From Alphaproteobacteria bacterium (GTDB lineage: Bacteria; Pseudomonadota; Alphaproteobacteria; CAAHEQ01; UBA3637): a DNA stretch of 52,181 nt. The stretch is from positions 1 to 52,181 of the forward strand of contig JAZUQR010000030.1 of NCBI GenBank assembly GCA_045605805.1, written 5' to 3'. Positions 4,314 to 36,144 of this stretch are shown here, one piece after another (positions within the stretch are counted from its first letter, which is position 1; each line of letters starts with the position of its first letter). The translations under genes and the position numbers were made by a program. A model generated the notes under the pieces. The model was not told the origin of the DNA, ran no database searches, and saw nothing but the letters and a program-made list of their open reading frames with translations.

Positions 4314-4389
4314 GGGGGTATAGCTCAGTTGGTAGAGCGTTGCAATGGCATTGCAAAGGTCAGGAGTTCGACCCTCCTTACCTCCACCA
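4314..4389 (+). tRNA. tRNA-Ala(GGC)
   Basis: 76-nt cloverleaf, anticodon GGC, G3:U70 pair, encoded CCA, downstream hairpin terminator. Confidence 0.97.
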
Positions 4390-12504: not shown

Positions 12505-12582
12505 CGCGGGGTAGAGCAGTCCGGTAGCTTGCCAGGCTCATAACCTGGAGGTCGTGAGGTTCAAATCCCACCCCCGCAACCA
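12505..12582 (+). tRNA. initiator tRNA-fMet(CAT)
   Basis: CGCGGGG 5' end with C1:A72 mismatch, CTCATAA loop, CCA; one extra bulged A in T-stem. Confidence 0.95.
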
Positions 12583-12885
12583 TAAAGAAAAAAGGTCAGC
12601 CGAGAGGTTGGCCTTTTTGATTTATACGTGGGGTGGGGTTGAACCACTGGTTCGGCCGAAATGAAATGAGGCAACGCCGGCAGGCGGCCCGAAGGGTGAG
12701 CGCATTTGCGCGAATAAATCCCACCCCCGCAACCATAAAGGAAAAAGGTCAGCCGAAAGGTTGGCCTTTTTGATTTATATATGGGGTGAGGTGAATGAAC
12801 CTCTGGTTCGGCCGAAATGAAATGAAGGCAACGCCGTCAGGCGACCCGAAGGGTGAGCGCTTTTGCGCGAATAAATCCCACCCCC
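12563..12885 (+). repeat. tRNA-linked tandem repeat (two units, periods 153 and 157 bp), RtT-like
   Basis: tRNA 3' end AAATCCCACCCCC recurs at 12563, 12716 and 12873; each unit has a terminator plus GC-rich hairpins. Confidence 0.9.
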
Positions 12886-25942: not shown

Positions 25943-26018
25943 TGGTGCCTGGAGACGGAATCGGACCGCCGACACAGAGATTTTCAGTCTCTTGCTCTAC
26001 CAACTGAGCTATCCAGGC
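25943..26018 (-). tRNA. tRNA-Phe(GAA)
   Basis: 76-nt cloverleaf, CTGAAAA loop, CCA; T-loop reads TCCGATT. Confidence 0.95.
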
Positions 26019-31004: not shown

Positions 31005-32252
31005 CTATCTTTCTAACCCCTTGCGTCTTCTTAAAGGAACTTGGGGTTTTTTTGTTGCCTTTTGTTCAACCAAACCATCATCAAGTAATAATTGTCCCAA
31101 ATAAATACTGGCAGGCTGAGACTTGGATATTTTTTTCAAAGAATCTGACTCATCAAAAGAAATGTCAATTTGACGAATATGGCCATCTTTACCTGACTTA
31201 TTTGGTACAACCCGAGATTTCATAGAAACAACAGGCGTACCTAATTCACGAAACAACGGATCAAAATAGACCAACGAAGAAGCATATAAACGATTCAACC
31301 AATCTTCATCAGGAGAAGCCCGCAGCAAATCAGATAAAAAAGCAGACAATGCCGCACGCTTTAATTCCAATGTCTTCGCCTCTCGTTTTTCGGCCGATAA
31401 AGAACAAACCAAATCCAAAAAAGCCCCCTCTATCATCTTTTTTTCTTTTAAGAAGTTCAAAGCCGTTTTCACCCGAGTCGCATGATGTTTAAGCCGATAA
31501 GAGGCAAACTTGCCCTTCACCCGCTGCTTCACCACAGGATTGTGTGCATAATCATTGATATCCGCCAAAGCCCGATAGATTTGAAAAGAATTCAATTTTT
31601 CCATCGCATGCCGAGCACTGTCCAAAGGCACCCCAAACGGCGCATCCATTTTATCAGAAACCATTTGGTTTAATGCTTCCCAACACCCTCTTTCATCTTT
31701 TGGATAATCCTCACGACAAGTCAATTCATCCAACACGCTAATCCATTTAGACTTATCCGTACGCAGATTTTCCATAGACAGAGCCTCAGTCAATTTTGGC
31801 ATCATTTTCAATGGACGCTCTAAACGCAAAAAAAGATTTTCATGAGCATCAAAATTCCAACCCCGAATTAAATTAGACAAAGAAAAATCCGGCATCTGTT
31901 CTTCTGAATCTAAAACAAGAATCTTTGTTCCTGTTTCTTCATCTTGAATTGTCTCCGCTTCTTCATTTTCCTTACATTGATTCACAAAATCAAGCTGCCA
32001 ATCCAGCATATGATTTTTGAAAAAGTTATATTCCAACGGAGAAATCAACCCTAAACCACCATACAAGCCCAAATCGGTAATCGAGTTTTGTTCATACCAT
32101 TTTTCCAAAGACAGGGATTTTTGTTTCTTACCAAAAAAAAGATGTTCCATCAATTTTGTTTGGGCTTTGGACACATTATCAGCATCAAACAAATTAGATG
32201 AAGCATCATAGGTTTCTGTCCATTTGAAAGGGCGAGCTTCTCTCATCGTCAT
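31005..32252 (-). CDS. orphan hypothetical protein ending KKPQVPLRRRKGLER
   Basis: 415-aa ORF, GGAGG SD, TTGACA-17-TAGACT promoter. Confidence 0.8.
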   Translation of the reverse strand: MTMREARPFKWTETYDASSNLFDADNVSKAQTKLMEHLFFGKKQKSLSLEKWYEQNSITDLGLYGGLGLISPLEYNFFKNHMLDWQLDFVNQCKENEEAETIQDEETGTKILVLDSEEQMPDFSLSNLIRGWNFDAHENLFLRLERPLKMMPKLTEALSMENLRTDKSKWISVLDELTCREDYPKDERGCWEALNQMVSDKMDAPFGVPLDSARHAMEKLNSFQIYRALADINDYAHNPVVKQRVKGKFASYRLKHHATRVKTALNFLKEKKMIEGAFLDLVCSLSAEKREAKTLELKRAALSAFLSDLLRASPDEDWLNRLYASSLVYFDPLFRELGTPVVSMKSRVVPNKSGKDGHIRQIDISFDESDSLKKISKSQPASIYLGQLLLDDGLVEQKATKKPQVPLRRRKGLER

Positions 32253-32335
32253 AACCTCCAAAAATAATTATAATTTGCACAAGTCTAGCATAAACGCATC
32301 ATTCTGTCAAGTTTTTTTACCTATTTCAAACATAA

Positions 32336-32383: not shown

Positions 32384-33568
32384 TTATTTTTCCAAAATGG
32401 CAACGCCTGGTAAAGATTTACCTTCCATCCATTCCAAGAAAGCCCCACCAGCCGCAGACACATAGGTCAAATCAGCTTTTACACCAGCTTTTTTCAAGGC
32501 AGAAACAGTATCGCCGCCACCAGCCACAGATGTTAAAACACCAGCCTTAGTTTGCTCGGCCACCACTTTGGCAATTTCGTTTGTCCCCTTATCAAAAGGT
32601 TTGATTTCAAAACAACCCACAGGGCCATTCCAAATCAAAGTTTTGGCATTTTGAATCACTTTGGCAAATTCAGCCACCGATTTTTCACCAATATCCATCA
32701 ACACTTTACCGGCAGGCACAGCATCTGCATCAGATGTATGAGCTTCTTGTCCTTCACCAAAGGCATCAGCCCACACTAAATCCACAGGCAACACAATTTG
32801 ACAAGCACCGGCATTGGCCAAAATATTTTTGGCTGTGTCAATCATATCTGGTTCAACCAAAGAACCTTCACCCATCGGAATCCCTTTGGCAGCCAAGAAA
32901 GTATGGGCCATACCGCCACCAATCAACAAATAATCCACTTTTTTCACCAAGTTGCCCAACAAATCCAACTTTGTGGATACCTTACTGCCACCCACCAAAG
33001 CAACCGCAGGATGTTGTGGGTTTCCCAATGCCTTATCCAAGGCTTCTAATTCTTCTTGCATTAAACGGCCAGCCCCATTTGGCAACAAATGAGCCATCCC
33101 TTCTGTGGAAGCATGCGCCCTGTGTGCTGTGGAAAAAGCATCATTGATATAAATATCCATTCCATGAGCCAAGGCTTCACCAAACGCACGGTCATTGGCC
33201 TCTTCACCTGCATAGAAGCGCAAGTTTTCCAACAAAATCACTTCACCGTTTTGCATGCCTTGAACAACAGCATCCCGTTCTTCGCCAATACAATCATCCA
33301 CAAACTTCACAGCAACGCCGGCCGCTTGTTCCAAAGCTGGTGCCAAAAATGCCATGGAAAACTCAGGATTTTTCTGTCCCTTTGGACGCCCAAAATGGCT
33401 GGCCACCACAGCTTTACCACCATGTTCAATCACATATTTCAAAGTTGGCACAAAGCGATCAATACGAGTCGTATCTGAAATAGCCCCATCCTTCACAGGC
33501 ACATTCAAATCGGCACGAATAAACACTGTTTTACCATTAAAATCAAAATCATCCAAAGTTTTAAACAT
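32384..33568 (-). CDS. pgk: phosphoglycerate kinase
   Basis: RADLNVP, SHFGRP, LLENLRF, GGSKVSTK, GGGDT. Confidence 0.98.
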   Translation of the reverse strand: MFKTLDDFDFNGKTVFIRADLNVPVKDGAISDTTRIDRFVPTLKYVIEHGGKAVVASHFGRPKGQKNPEFSMAFLAPALEQAAGVAVKFVDDCIGEERDAVVQGMQNGEVILLENLRFYAGEEANDRAFGEALAHGMDIYINDAFSTAHRAHASTEGMAHLLPNGAGRLMQEELEALDKALGNPQHPAVALVGGSKVSTKLDLLGNLVKKVDYLLIGGGMAHTFLAAKGIPMGEGSLVEPDMIDTAKNILANAGACQIVLPVDLVWADAFGEGQEAHTSDADAVPAGKVLMDIGEKSVAEFAKVIQNAKTLIWNGPVGCFEIKPFDKGTNEIAKVVAEQTKAGVLTSVAGGGDTVSALKKAGVKADLTYVSAAGGAFLEWMEGKSLPGVAILEK

Positions 33569-33648
33569 TTTTTTCCTTTCGTTTGTTAAAATAAATCGTA
33601 CCCATATTTCTAACCTTTTTTTTCAAAAAAAGCAAGCGAAATTATTTA

Positions 33649-33677
33649 TTGCACAATCAAATTATTTGTGGTACAAT
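33649..33677 (+). promoter_or_regulatory. sigma70 promoter with extended -10 driving the structured RNA
   Basis: TTGCAC-17-TACAAT with TG at 33669-33670. Confidence 0.7.
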
Positions 33678-33683
33678 TCAAAC

Positions 33684-33869
33684 CGAGACAGGCGATTCCT
33701 GTCTTGAGGCTTAGAAAACCTCCCAATTGATGTCTGGAAAGACATAAAATTTCCAACTGATATATCTATCGGTTGGAAGATCGCAAAATAAGGGCAACCA
33801 AATATGCGATGCTATTTTCAATTGATAGTTTTCTAGCTTCCAACCGCCTCTCATCAAGGCGTTTTTTTT
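33684..33869 (+). ncRNA. putative structured RNA/attenuator leader
   Basis: Multi-hairpin fold with GGAA and GCAA tetraloops, long closing stem, alternative 10-bp pairing and terminal CGCCT/AGGCG-T8 terminator. Confidence 0.7.
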
Positions 33870-33887
33870 ATGTTGAAAGGAACCTTT

Positions 33888-34286
33888 ATGAAAAAAACTT
33901 TATTACTATCATTTTTATTTTTGGGCGCATGCACCTCTTTAAGTGGAATTGAAAATGCAAAACTACATCAACTAAAAGCCCAAGGAGTCACAATAGATCA
34001 TCCTGTGGGACACTACACCAAGCCCGCCTCTGCGATTGGAGCCGCCGCATTAAATGTCTTACCAGGAGTTGGTAATTTCTATCTTGCCGCAGGCGAAGCT
34101 GGCGAATCATCACACTGGTTATATGGTTTTTTGAATTTACTGACTTGGCCCGTTTCTATTTTGTGGGGCATTCCAGAAGCCGCCGTTGATGCCAACACAA
34201 TCAACAAAAAAGAAATGCTATATTATTATACTTACGATAAACAAGGACAAAAAGACTTACAACACGCAGGCGTGACATTAGATTAA
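33888..34286 (+). CDS. lipoprotein with TM2-like hydrophobic hairpin
   Basis: Lipobox LGAC; AALNVLPGVGNFYL...GFLNLLTWPVSILWG. Confidence 0.8.
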   Translation: MKKTLLLSFLFLGACTSLSGIENAKLHQLKAQGVTIDHPVGHYTKPASAIGAAALNVLPGVGNFYLAAGEAGESSHWLYGFLNLLTWPVSILWGIPEAAVDANTINKKEMLYYYTYDKQGQKDLQHAGVTLD

Positions 34287-34289
34287 AAG

Positions 34290-34319
34290 AAACACCCCCG
34301 ATTGTTCGGGGGTGTTTTT
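34290..34319. terminator. bidirectional terminator between the lipoprotein gene and gap
   Basis: AAACACCCCCGA-N4-TCGGGGGTGTTT. Confidence 0.85.
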
Positions 34320-34344
34320 GTATTTAAGCGACATTGCTTATTGC

Positions 34345-35352
34345 TTACAGCAATTTGCCCATAGCAACGGCTGTATCTAACATACGGTTGGAGAATCCCC
34401 ATTCGTTGTCATACCAGCTCATAATACGCAATTGAGTGCCACCCATCACCTTTGTACCATTGGCATCAAATGTGGAAGAGTGAGGATCATGTGTAAAGTC
34501 AATGCTGACCAGTTTTTCAGCATTATAACCAAGCACGCCCTTCAATTCACCTTCTGCGGCAGCTTTCATAGCAGCATTCACTTCGTCAACAGTCACTTCT
34601 TTTTCCATAATCAAGTTAGCATCAACCAAAGAAACATCTGGTGTGGGCACACGAATGGACACACCGTCCAATTTGCCAGCCATTTCTGGAATCACCAAAC
34701 CAATAGCTTTGGCCGCACCAGTTTTTGTTGGAATCATGCTCATAGCAGCAGCACGAGCACGATACAAATCTTTATGCAATTGATCCAAAATCTTTTGATC
34801 GTTGGTGTAGCTGTGAATGGTTGTCATAAAGCCTTGTTTAATACCAAAAGCCTTTTGCAATACATATACCACAGGGGCCAAACAGTTTGTGGTGCAAGAA
34901 GCATTGGATACAACCAAATCTTCGGCTGTCAATGTATCGTGGTTCACACCATAAACAATGGTCTTATCAGCCCCTTCACTTGGAGCAGACACCAACACAC
35001 GTTTGGCACCGGCTGTCAAATGAACAGTGGCTTTTTCTTTGGAAGTAAAAATACCTGTGCATTCAAAAACGATATCAATACCCATTTCACCCCAAGGCAA
35101 TTGAGTTGGATCTTTTTGCGCAATCACCCGTGTTTTTTTGTCACCAGCAATCAAATAATCACCTTCGGCACGAATATCCATATCCAATTTTCTATGAACA
35201 GAGTCATACTTCAACAAATAAGCATTAGCAGAAGCATCACCCAAATCGTTGATGGCAACAATATCCACATCATCACGGCCTGATTCTAACCAAGCACGAT
35301 AAACCAAACGGCCAATACGTCCAAAACCGTTAATAGCAACTTTTACTGTCAT
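34345..35352 (-). CDS. gap: type I glyceraldehyde-3-phosphate dehydrogenase
   Basis: INGFGRIGR, SNASCTTNCLAP, WYDNEWG. Confidence 0.98.
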   Translation of the reverse strand: MTVKVAINGFGRIGRLVYRAWLESGRDDVDIVAINDLGDASANAYLLKYDSVHRKLDMDIRAEGDYLIAGDKKTRVIAQKDPTQLPWGEMGIDIVFECTGIFTSKEKATVHLTAGAKRVLVSAPSEGADKTIVYGVNHDTLTAEDLVVSNASCTTNCLAPVVYVLQKAFGIKQGFMTTIHSYTNDQKILDQLHKDLYRARAAAMSMIPTKTGAAKAIGLVIPEMAGKLDGVSIRVPTPDVSLVDANLIMEKEVTVDEVNAAMKAAAEGELKGVLGYNAEKLVSIDFTHDPHSSTFDANGTKVMGGTQLRIMSWYDNEWGFSNRMLDTAVAMGKLL

Positions 35353-35550
35353 TTTTTTATCCTTTCATATTTTTAACATACGACTTCAAAATCGTGGGTT
35401 TAGTATAAACACATTTTGAAACAAATTGCAAGTACTTTTTGACAAATTTTAAGTTTAATAATACAAAATGAAAAAGGTCTATTTTAAGAAAACTCTTGAC
35501 AAAAACAACAGTTATAATTATAATATAACCAATTTTTTAAGGAGTTGGAA

Positions 35551-36144
35551 ATGTTAGATATTCAAATTTTTAATGTACGCACACCCGTTTATGAAAATAA
35601 AACACAGGTTGGATCTATTCCACATATCTCTCTTGGAACCTATACAGCTTTAACCCCAGAGGAACGTACTGCCCTTGAAGGCTGCACCTCCCATCTAACC
35701 GACAATTCTGTATCCGCTTTTAACAAAGCGATTCACAACATAGGAAAAAAGTTTTATGCCATTCATCTGTTGCATGAACTGGCCAAAGTCAACCATCCAT
35801 TGGTTAAAGAGCAATTAAAAAATCAGATTCAAAACATTTGTCAACAAAAACCTCAAAACTTACCCCAACTGCAAAAGGAACAAAAATTGTTGCAATCATA
35901 TATTGTCAAAACCTTTACGCCCGAAGAACAAGTCATGATGATGATTCGTCTAAAAAATCACCATGACCAAAAAAAGAAAGCCAACGAAATCACCCCCGAA
36001 GAAGATGAAATCTTTGCCAGAGGTATTGCTGAATGCGTTCAGGCTATCAAGGATATGCCCAAGGAAAGGAAAAGCCCTCTTATCCGCAACTTATGCATCA
36101 ACAGCACACACCGACATTATACAAAGAATCACTCTCGCACATAA
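35551..36144 (+). CDS. orphan hypothetical protein
   Basis: TTGACA-17-TATAAT (35496-35524), AAGGAG SD. Confidence 0.75.
   Translation: MLDIQIFNVRTPVYENKTQVGSIPHISLGTYTALTPEERTALEGCTSHLTDNSVSAFNKAIHNIGKKFYAIHLLHELAKVNHPLVKEQLKNQIQNICQQKPQNLPQLQKEQKLLQSYIVKTFTPEEQVMMMIRLKNHHDQKKKANEITPEEDEIFARGIAECVQAIKDMPKERKSPLIRNLCINSTHRHYTKNHSRT

Follow-up and report, generated by a model that had tools for sequence, protein, structure and literature searches.

In the 52,181-nucleotide (nt) stretch of alphaproteobacterial DNA analyzed here (the window), the pgk gene (32384-33568) and the gap gene (34345-35352), both on the minus strand, flank an interval of 776 nt which carries on its plus strand a promoter, a structured RNA, a tract of eight T residues, a ribosome-binding site (RBS) and the gene of a 132-aa lipoprotein. 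This structured RNA is not a singleton: it is one copy of a widespread leader RNA of ~180 nt that is found in small-genome gut Alphaproteobacteria. Judged from its sequence and its homologues, it is, on balance, probably a bistable, riboswitch-like cis-regulatory leader, which has its own promoter and would set read-through at a weak terminator of an envelope or surface gene. A preliminary description of this locus had proposed that the lipoprotein gene directly follows a promoter-preceded structured RNA which ends in a terminator and has a genuine alternative pairing, and this part of the proposal is supported by the analysis presented below.

The leader RNA and its competing strands

The sigma-70-type promoter (33649-33677, plus strand, as are all parts of the leader described below) was recognized by a pattern scan with 9 of 12 matches and the TG present. 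It consists of the -35 element TTGCAC (33649-33654) followed, after a 17-nt spacer, by the extended -10 element TGgTACAAT (33669-33677). The transcript is predicted to start at ~33684, and the same arrangement of the -35 and -10 elements, equally far from the structured element, is seen in 29 aligned related copies. Downstream of the promoter lies the region of dense structure, ~180 nt in length (33684-33861). Folding of a 206-nt stretch yielded an energy of -66.8 kcal/mol (z = -6.2), and none of 200 shuffled sequences was equally stable; since the reverse strand of this stretch folds equally well (z = -5.9), folding energy alone cannot pick the strand. The structured region ends with the terminal hairpin CGCCT-CTCATCA-AGGCG (33845-33861) of 5 base pairs (bp), four of them GC, which together with the T8 tract (33862-33869) makes an intrinsic-terminator-like site: it fits the pattern of a predicted intrinsic (Rho-independent) terminator, i.e., a hairpin followed by a U tract, with a stem that is short. 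The RBS AAAGGAA (33876-33882), as read from the sequence, is 5 nt before the ATG of the lipoprotein gene at 33888. The promoter, hairpins, long-range stems, terminator and alternative pairing of the preliminary description are thus all present where it had placed them.

The covariation among homologues that had been suggested as a check of the structure was found in 94-99 copies, with 92.5-95.2% of cells paired compared to 77-79% in shuffles. The first alignment (A2) holds 94 distinct full-length copies, obtained from 120 nhmmer hits (96 of them distinct) by leaving out the partial copies L061 and L085. For the hand-named pairings, 92.5% and 93.6% of its cells are paired versus 78.0% and 77.1% in the shuffles, the observed level being reached by none of 500 shuffles, and controls with slid partners gave only 32-43% of paired cells (32-44% over both alignments). 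A covariance model with 182 positions and 43 pairs was built from A2 and used for a second, model-based alignment (A3; 99 matches, obtained when 100 sources were searched, 95 distinct rows), in which 95.2% of cells are paired versus 78.9% in shuffles, three of the pairings counted being outside the model. G.U pairs greatly outnumber A.C mismatches, 463 versus 101 overall and 137 versus 4 in hairpin P4, so that selection has acted on the structure in the RNA of the plus strand, which is sense for the gene downstream.

The 5' hairpin P1 (33685-33692/33698-33705, 8 bp) has the loop CGATT with a near-invariant GAU; it is 86-89% paired, all eight of its pairs have changed on both sides in A3, and the G, A and U columns of its loop are present in 94-97 of 99 copies. 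It is followed by the hairpin P2 (GAGG/CCTC, 33706-33709/33719-33722), which is absent from the model that made A3 and is 90.7% paired, three of four pairs having changed on both sides (the outer pair being GC61 GU18 UA8 AU5). A stem GAGG/CTTC, which the preliminary description had placed at the outer end of a long closing stem and which was also obtained in part from RNAalifold, was rejected: its columns are invariant, and the same GAGG pairs with the local CCTC instead, with covariation. The inner parts of that closing stem did stand, as two pseudoknot helices, PK1 and PK2. In PK1, the loop of P2 (33712-33718) pairs with a downstream strand (33829-33835); it is 94.4% paired, with six of seven pairs changed on both sides (e.g., AU43 GC33 CG18). 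In PK2, an upstream strand (CAATTGA, 33724-33730) pairs with the loop (TCAATTG, 33818-33824) of the hairpin P6 (CTAT/ATAG, 33812-33815/33825-33828), a further hairpin, which the earlier list, all of whose members are present, had missed. P6 itself is 98.9% paired, with three of four pairs changed on both sides. Because PK2 is too variable for column counts, it was tested sequence by sequence in 99 copies: between the joining region of a copy and the P6 loop of that same copy, the longest Watson-Crick run has a median length of 7 and is at least 6 in 85 of the 99 copies, whereas with the loop of another copy the mean run is 2.8 and a run of at least 6 occurs in 70 of 9592 combinations. There are 74 distinct P6-loop sequences.

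P2 and P6 have 4 bp each, and the loop of each pairs with the strand directly 3' of the other hairpin. P2, P6, PK1 and PK2 may therefore be described as a putative reciprocal double pseudoknot, each helix pair of which is in H-type strand order; that all of these helices form simultaneously is inferred from their connectivity. Between the two halves of this arrangement lie the variable hairpin P3 (33731-33735/33740-33744; 98.4% paired, four of four pairs changed on both sides), the hairpin P4 (33751-33762/33767-33778; 92.9% paired, two pairs changed on both sides and covariation in distant copies) and the hairpin P5/P5b (33780-33810, with P5 at 33780-33785/33805-33810), which encloses a conserved internal loop, AAAATAAG / AAATAT. 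P5 is 98.5% and P5b 92.2% paired, and eight of eight pairs have changed on both sides. The terminal stem is 94.7% paired (CG78/UA16 at one pair). The P1 loop (UGAU) is complementary to the loop of the terminal hairpin (AUCA) in 95.7% of cells, both motifs being almost invariant; compatible double changes are seen in two copies (UGAC/GUCA in L032 and UGGU/ACCA in L136), and both motifs are missing in three (L030, L035 and L134). The evidence for a contact between these two loops is thin.

The feature of the leader that may make it a switch is the competition of two of its strands for a third one. Strand 2 (TATCGGTTGGAAG, 33767-33779) can pair either with strand 1 (33751-33762), the 5' arm of P4, or, over 33770-33779, with strand 3 (CTTCCAACCG, 33837-33846), and the latter pairing is a perfect one of 10 bp. 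The helix formed by strands 2 and 3 (helix 2:3) closes, together with P5 and P6, a three-way junction; the stem of the terminator begins with the last 2 nt of strand 3. Helix 2:3 is 98.8-99.5% paired, with AU46 GC36 GU13 and CG65 UA28 at two pairs and with further compensatory variants in distant copies. The core UGGAAG of strand 2 is invariant or nearly so. Around it, strands 2 and 3 read GGUUGGAAG/CUUCCAACC in the window copy, GACUGGAAG/CUUCCAGUC in most others, GGCAGGAAG/CUUCCUGC in L138 and GGGUGGAUG/CAUCCACCC in L134, a divergent copy from the window's own genome, and strand 1 is adjusted likewise in each variant. Both the 1:2 and the 2:3 pairings are thus kept through compensatory change, distant copies included. 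One genome, G015, has two variants of the 2:3 pairing (in L012 and L033), and this coexistence implies that the pairing acts within a molecule.

The energies of the two forced states were compared for the 3' domain of 99 aligned copies in a nested energy model, in which pseudoknots are ignored. The mean energies are -31.2 kcal/mol for 1:2 and -31.7 kcal/mol for 2:3, with a median difference of -0.3 (range -12.1 to +8.1); in 53 of the 99 copies, 2:3 has the greater stability. In this model, the near-equal energies of the two states would provide the balance that a bistable element needs.

Spread of the leader and the genes behind it

A DNA search of the genome to which the window belongs (1.21 Mb in 31 contigs) revealed two further copies of the leader with 75-77% identity, each directly upstream of a gene for an exported protein: a second lipoprotein in one case and, in the other, a 475-aa protein that has a pilin-type N-terminus and EGF/Hint matches. 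BLAST against 41 related genomes gave matches in 17 of them. With a pattern modeled on the conserved 3' end, 92 matching stretches were obtained from a collection of species-representative genomes, and the whole element is present in 90 of these; records L076 and L084 (Planctomycetia and Pirellulales) were discarded as chance matches in which the rest of the element is lacking. The records behind the pattern matches are nearly all metagenome-assembled, bear the name "Alphaproteobacteria bacterium" and come from animal and human guts; the host group is presumably the GTDB order RF32. With the covariance model, six copies were found in the window's own genome (144, 140, 134, 84, 54 and 25 bits), and of 80 genomes that belong to the same family 72 have copies, as do 15 of its 16 genera; the number per genome ranges from 1 to at least 33, the latter figure being a lower bound set by the number of candidates scored. 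The view of the locus as a unique cassette insertion is not compatible with these numbers. Outside the host family, copies were found in 13 of 149 alphaproteobacterial families, each sampled by one genome, and the 13 carrier genomes are all 0.9-2.5 Mb in size. Copies within one genome are 54-97% identical and, in high-copy genomes, are often located at contig ends. A full-length leader (132 bits) was also observed on a 3.3-kb contig of a record titled Candidatus Gastranaerophilales (L080); for this bin of a cyanobacteria-related gut bacterium a binning error is more likely than transfer.

No Rfam 15 family was found in the leader region when the whole window was scanned at gathering thresholds, and no description of the RNA was found in Rfam 15 or in a narrow literature search with the terms RF32/CAG-239 Alphaproteobacteria, riboswitch and genome. 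As far as Rfam 15 and this limited literature search show, the leader is a new RNA family.

In 88 of 95 distinct copies, an RBS and a start codon in the same orientation follow the terminal hairpin at a distance of 2-60 nt (median 28), which leaves too little room for a second promoter, and 73 of the 95 copies have at least six T residues within the first 9 nt after the hairpin. When the products were sorted by simple N-terminal rules, 27 were lipoprotein-like, 19 had a signal peptide or transmembrane-like segment and 19 were prepilin-like (of the G-R-S-M-V-E-M-L type); the remaining copies had 23 other products and, in seven cases, no gene that could be found. Pfam named 10 of 35 full-length downstream proteins and left 25 without a match. 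The named ones include outer-membrane protein beta-barrels (two), Bor lipoproteins (two), BamE, DUF805, Hint/EGF (one) and an N6 DNA methylase (one), and there are weak pilin-type matches (N_methyl, PilS) in two downstream proteins. It appears from these assignments that most genes behind the leader encode lipoproteins, signal-peptide proteins or pilin-like proteins, so that the leader would define a surface-protein regulon.

Twenty loci were retrieved from two high-copy genomes, 12 from G088 and 8 from G091. In G091, paralogous pilin-like genes lie behind seven of the eight loci, whose leaders are on average 66% identical. In G088, where the leaders are 85% identical, a pilin-like gene directly follows the leader in one of the 12 loci; seven of the other 11 were read further, and all seven have a pilin-like gene ~100-220 nt downstream. 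The high copy number therefore reflects an expanded family of pilin-like genes with a leader for each gene. Most of the G088 loci (L171-L182) have a conserved stretch between the terminator and the pilin-like gene, the first 26 nt of which are common to ten loci and which contains a promoter-like TTGCAA motif of its own and a short open frame of ~62 aa. The proteins with the pilin-type N-terminus (...G-R-S-M-V-E-M-L-G-V-L-A-I-I-G-V-L-S...) form a large and fast-diverging family with varied C-terminal parts, to which belong the product of 1643-3067 in L003 (contig C10 of the window's own genome, with EGF-like and Hint modules), those of L171-L189 (G088 and G091) and many others; some genomes of ~1.1-1.6 Mb carry dozens of such genes, each behind its own leader RNA. 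The two weakest copies of the window's own genome, C24:17649-17868 (minus strand, 54 bits) and C8:49050-49237 (plus strand, 25 bits), precede paralogous proteins of ~160 aa (...F-I/F-G-H...) that look cytoplasmic and have no signal peptide, the C24 protein having neither a Pfam nor an NCBIfam match; the leader is thus not confined to genes of exported proteins.

The lipoprotein encoded in the window (33888-34286, plus strand) has the lipobox LGAC with Cys15 and two later hydrophobic segments. No Pfam family matched it at E <= 10, and the only NCBIfam match, MlaA, is far below threshold. The label "TM2-like", given to this protein in the preliminary description, has to be dropped: at E <= 10, PF05154 matched nothing anywhere in the genome, whereas control genomes were positive. 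Orthologues of the lipoprotein in L012 (G015, contig 10) and L021 have the same leader. A GC-rich, terminator-like hairpin of 12 bp (34290-34317) lies between the lipoprotein gene and the convergent gap gene, which share it.

That the leader and its gene were inserted between gap and pgk is plausible and has been shown in part. Among 30 pgk loci of the host family that were examined, two from another genus (L166 and L170) have gap directly upstream of pgk, ~120 nt away, and in L165 a 48%-identical gap homologue is directly upstream of pgk. In 18 loci of the same genus, there is no gap homologue upstream of pgk within up to 1.5 kb (130-730 nt in three loci at contig ends), and the DNA upstream of pgk, where present, matches other parts of the window's own genome. 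A lipoprotein homologue stands beside pgk only in the latter genome, the orthologues in L012 and L021 being located elsewhere. In G008, a second species of this genus (L014, contig 56, 1-874), pgk is closely preceded by a different leader and the gene of a 70-aa secreted protein, both oriented like pgk. Units composed of a leader and a gene seem to have settled repeatedly in front of pgk.

The gene behind the leader also varies between strains. Two animal-gut metagenome runs, X1 and X4, hold one contig each in which position 33869 or 33871 is joined directly to 34286, so that the 414-416 nt skipped correspond exactly to the lipoprotein reading frame. The X4 contig is 1029 nt long and has 45 clean letters beyond the joint; in the X1 contig the shorter side has 30 letters and there are three extra letters between the sides. 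Other contigs in both runs hold the lipoprotein gene. With a single contig for each joint, a close strain appears to keep the leader without the lipoprotein frame, and the joints fit the gain or loss of a cargo gene behind a resident leader. Three further joints (33709-33844, 33726-33822 and 33801-34277) were not accepted as deletions, as their sides have 26-38 letters with unknown letters between them; they are read as contigs of paralogous copies.

Elsewhere in the window, the open reading frames 31005-32261 (minus strand, 418 aa) and 35545-36144 (plus strand, 199 aa), which flank pgk and gap, have no Pfam match at E <= 0.01. At gathering thresholds, Rfam recognized RNase P RNA class A, three tRNAs and an RtT-like element (123-493, minus; 4314-4386, plus; 12505-12579, plus; 12617-12735, plus; 25946-26018, minus), the RtT-like element, which directly follows one of the tRNAs, with 46.6 bits against a threshold of 45.

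Known RNAs and possible signals

A permissive Rfam scan (cmscan, 33400-34500, both strands, E <= 10) gave 13 matches, the only recurrent one of which is to sRNA-Xcc1 (RF02221). The whole model of this RNA is aligned to 33771-33853 with 32.8 bits; L002 scored 33.8 bits, L003 gave no match, and L060, with 41.9 bits, was the only match among 20 further copies, so that 3 of the 23 copies scanned match at scores below the gathering threshold of 53. sRNA-Xcc1 is an 88-nt RNA of Xanthomonas campestris that was seen on Northern blots (PMC2996969); a 2011 paper on it by Chen et al. is cited in bioRxiv 10.1101/427781. In integron cassettes it precedes symE (bioRxiv 10.1101/2025.06.18.660453), and in some APSE phages an ORF6N gene (bioRxiv 10.1101/2020.03.17.996009). 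Its 9-bp closing helix corresponds to helix 2:3, its hairpin with an AAUA-rich internal loop to P5 and its second hairpin to P6, and like the leader it is directly upstream of a protein gene. On the other hand, the leader is twice as long, and P1, P2, P3, strand 1, the two pseudoknots and the conserved terminator loop are absent from the sRNA-Xcc1 model; moreover, the leader stands before envelope genes of gut Alphaproteobacteria and not in integron cassettes. Distant homology of the two RNAs is possible on the basis of this partial alignment.

In its general plan, the leader resembles the riboswitches that combine a junction with a pseudoknot. It has a covarying multi-helix fold in a 5' untranslated region (UTR), a hairpin loop that pairs with a junction strand, a closing helix that shares a strand with the putative expression platform and, after it, a terminator hairpin with a U tract, and there are many copies per genome with one functional theme. 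SAM-I is an example of an aptamer with a junction and a pseudoknot and a terminator platform. The leader differs from riboswitches in that its closing helix has its competitor (strand 1) within the RNA, on the upstream and not on the downstream side, in that the overlap with the terminator is 1-2 bp and in that the loop of its 5' hairpin is complementary to the terminator loop. It matches no Rfam riboswitch family. Functionally, the regulons of the cyclic di-GMP (c-di-GMP) riboswitches I and II are analogous, as they are rich in pilins, adhesins and surface proteins, and these riboswitches are present in high copy in some genomes; the analogy is one of function only, with no sequence or structure match in the permissive scan.

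The genome that contains the window is 98.85% complete and encodes two GGDEF proteins, one EAL protein, RelA/SpoT and a single NusG; no match was found in it for PilZ, for the DAC domain of cyclic di-AMP cyclases, for Hfq or for CsrA. With neither Hfq nor CsrA and with one NusG, titration of CsrA, Hfq-dependent action and antitermination of the RfaH/LoaP type are not favored, and the absence of these usual protein routes mildly favors direct sensing by the RNA. RelA/SpoT, which would speak for ppGpp as a signal, is found universally, and the lack of a DAC domain offers no support for cyclic di-AMP. c-di-GMP was chosen for a test as the ligand because of the pilin and surface theme and is not supported. 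GGDEF was not found in four carrier genomes that are 97-98% complete and have 3-5 copies of the RNA, and, in the comparison of 80 genomes, it is present in all eight genomes that do not have the RNA. A search of the window's own genome with RF01051 gave no match, but control genomes gave none either.

Mechanism, rival explanations and significance

The reading that we consider, on balance, probable, that of a bistable cis-regulatory leader acting on a weak terminator, is close to the "unknown riboswitch" that was mentioned as an alternative in the preliminary description. In its on state, strand 2 would pair with strand 3, the junction would be closed, and the terminator, deprived of its outer one to two pairs, would be read through. 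In its off state, strand 2 would be held by strand 1 and the full terminator hairpin would form. The balance between the states could be shifted by a signal, which might be a small ligand bound at the conserved junction or internal loops, temperature or some protein, and the outcome would be the co-ordinated expression of a surface-protein regulon.

A second output, at the RBS, may exist in some copies. GGAAGT is present in the RBS region of 27 of 88 leader genes versus 4 of 569 long control genes of the window's own genome, and a Watson-Crick run of at least six between strand 3 (AACUUCC) and the Shine-Dalgarno sequence is found in 31 of 88 versus 19 of 569; in this comparison the controls come from one genome and the leaders from many, and paralogous families may inflate the count. 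The 1:2 state would free strand 3, whose CUUCC is anti-Shine-Dalgarno-like, and free strand 3 could mask the GGAAGU RBS in about a third of copies, in which the 2:3 state would also free the RBS. General masking of the RBS by strand 3 was rejected, as it fits only this third of the copies and not that of the window.

Several observations weigh against the proposed switch or limit it. The energy comparison of 1:2 and 2:3 leaves out the pseudoknots. Strand 3 matches the RBS of the window copy over no more than 4 bp, and translational masking therefore cannot be general. The alternative pairing is real, but the mutual exclusivity of terminator and antiterminator turns out to be weaker than had been claimed: helix 2:3 overlaps the terminator stem by 1-2 bp only, four of the five terminator pairs survive in constrained folds, and in such a model the helix and the terminator could stack and not exclude each other. 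As the overlap concerns only the one to two outer pairs of a 5-bp hairpin, the terminator would be weakened and not abolished. Seven of 95 copies have no gene start nearby, most of the G088 copies are ~215 nt from their gene, and the strain variant described above keeps the leader without the gene; these copies without a nearby gene, the leader-only strain and the distant G088 genes leave room for a function of the RNA alone. Finally, 23 of 95 N-termini fit no export rule, and some of the products look cytoplasmic (e.g., glycosyltransferase-like proteins and a DNA methylase), although by eye some of the 23 are missed signal peptides or membrane proteins.

A bolder version of the bistable leader is tentative, and we would rather doubt it than assume it. 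In this version, the RNA would be a new riboswitch class or an unusually complex RNA thermometer, a doubly pseudoknotted and pseudo-symmetric sensor that reads its signal directly and, from as many as 30 or more copies in a 1-Mb genome, sets the whole surface make-up (pilin-like proteins, outer-membrane proteins and lipoproteins) in a widespread set of uncultured gut Alphaproteobacteria without Hfq and CsrA, with sRNA-Xcc1 of plant pathogens as a minimal relative of the sensor.

Another possibility, which we regard as unlikely, is that the RNA is a free-standing, trans-acting small RNA (sRNA) of ~185 nt whose invariant CUUCCA could pair with the GGAAGU RBS of envelope mRNAs, the read-through downstream being incidental. 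The strong conserved promoter, the terminator with its U tract, the 7 of 95 copies without a near gene start and the leader-only strain variant would all suit such an RNA, and the enrichment of GGAAGT at the RBS fits pairing in trans as well as in cis; the nearest Rfam family, sRNA-Xcc1, is itself described as an 88-nt RNA on Northern blots (PMC2996969). However, 88 of 95 copies are in the same orientation as, and at a median of 28 nt before, an RBS and start codon and are thus necessarily the 5' end of those mRNAs. The variants of 2:3 and PK1 differ between copies of one genome and each is compensated in cis, and Hfq was not found in the window's own genome.

We find it likewise improbable that the leader is a constitutive 5' UTR which does not switch and which stabilizes the mRNA or boosts translation, P4 being a mere co-transcriptional intermediate. 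The model for such a stabilizing leader is the ompA 5' UTR, and outer-membrane proteins, lipoproteins and pilins are typically highly expressed. A 5' hairpin that begins at the predicted start would be in keeping with this role, complementary 5' and 3' loops would tie the ends, and helix 2:3 and the terminal hairpin, with their overlap of 1-2 bp, could coexist. Yet a hairpin with a U-rich tract before the RBS (73 of 95 copies) would cost expression if it were never bypassed, and it would be unexpected for a mere intermediate that strand 1 is kept complementary and that the two states are within a median of 0.3 kcal/mol.

That the leader is a self-cleaving ribozyme, or an RNA with some other catalytic or processing role in 5' UTRs, is very unlikely. 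A nested or reciprocal pseudoknot fold with conserved unpaired nucleotides, and a copy number of 1 to at least 33 per genome, would be in line with it; no similarity to the ribozyme families of Rfam 15 was found at E <= 10, and a conserved competition of two states and a terminator are alien to the known self-cleaving classes.

There is still less to be expected from a DNA-level repeat, i.e., a miniature mobile element or a recombination site with a promoter, whose palindromes would act as DNA. Both strands do fold equally well, copies are often at contig ends in high-copy genomes, and strains differ by the insertion or deletion of the gene that follows the leader. But the asymmetry of G.U over A.C makes sense only for a plus-strand RNA, divergent copies within a genome (75-77% identity in the window's own, on average 66% in G091) keep their pairs by compensation, and the orientation and spacing to the downstream gene are fixed.

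The probability left for a phage-type immunity RNA, which would force termination through duplicated targets and gate an exclusion or immunity lipoprotein as the preliminary description had suggested, is close to nil: in P4 CI and P1/P7 c4 RNA one sequence is complementary to two leader sites and is linked to premature termination, and the layout of the leader, in which strand 2 is complementary to strands 1 and 3 upstream of a terminator and both pairings covary, is formally alike, but neither C4, c4-a1b1, isrK nor a related family is among the 13 permissive matches, the leader is chromosomal and multi-copy in a non-phage context, it is found in 72 of 80 family genomes before ordinary envelope genes, and each copy compensates its own pairing variant, as would fit action in cis and not one trans-acting immunity RNA. 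The proposed role in entry exclusion or immunity is not supported either, the other copies being followed by ordinary envelope genes.

In this contribution, we described a leader RNA of a kind that has become a rare find: structured cis-regulatory RNAs that are so large, so well backed by covariation and so abundant, and are yet absent from Rfam, are now seldom discovered. Its fold, with reciprocal loop-to-tail pseudoknots, complementary end loops and an internal competitor strand, is a new case for studies of RNA structure and co-transcriptional folding. If the leader is related to sRNA-Xcc1, it would suggest a mechanism for an RNA of integrons, transposons and phages in plant- and insect-associated bacteria. 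The organisms that carry it belong to a lineage for which metagenomes are the only source, in which next to nothing is known about gene control and in which, in the single genome examined for them, the usual RNA chaperones were not found; in this lineage the leader marks a surface-protein regulon, and should a ligand be sensed by it, this would point to a signal controlling the way in which these gut bacteria present themselves to the host, to phage and to their neighbors.

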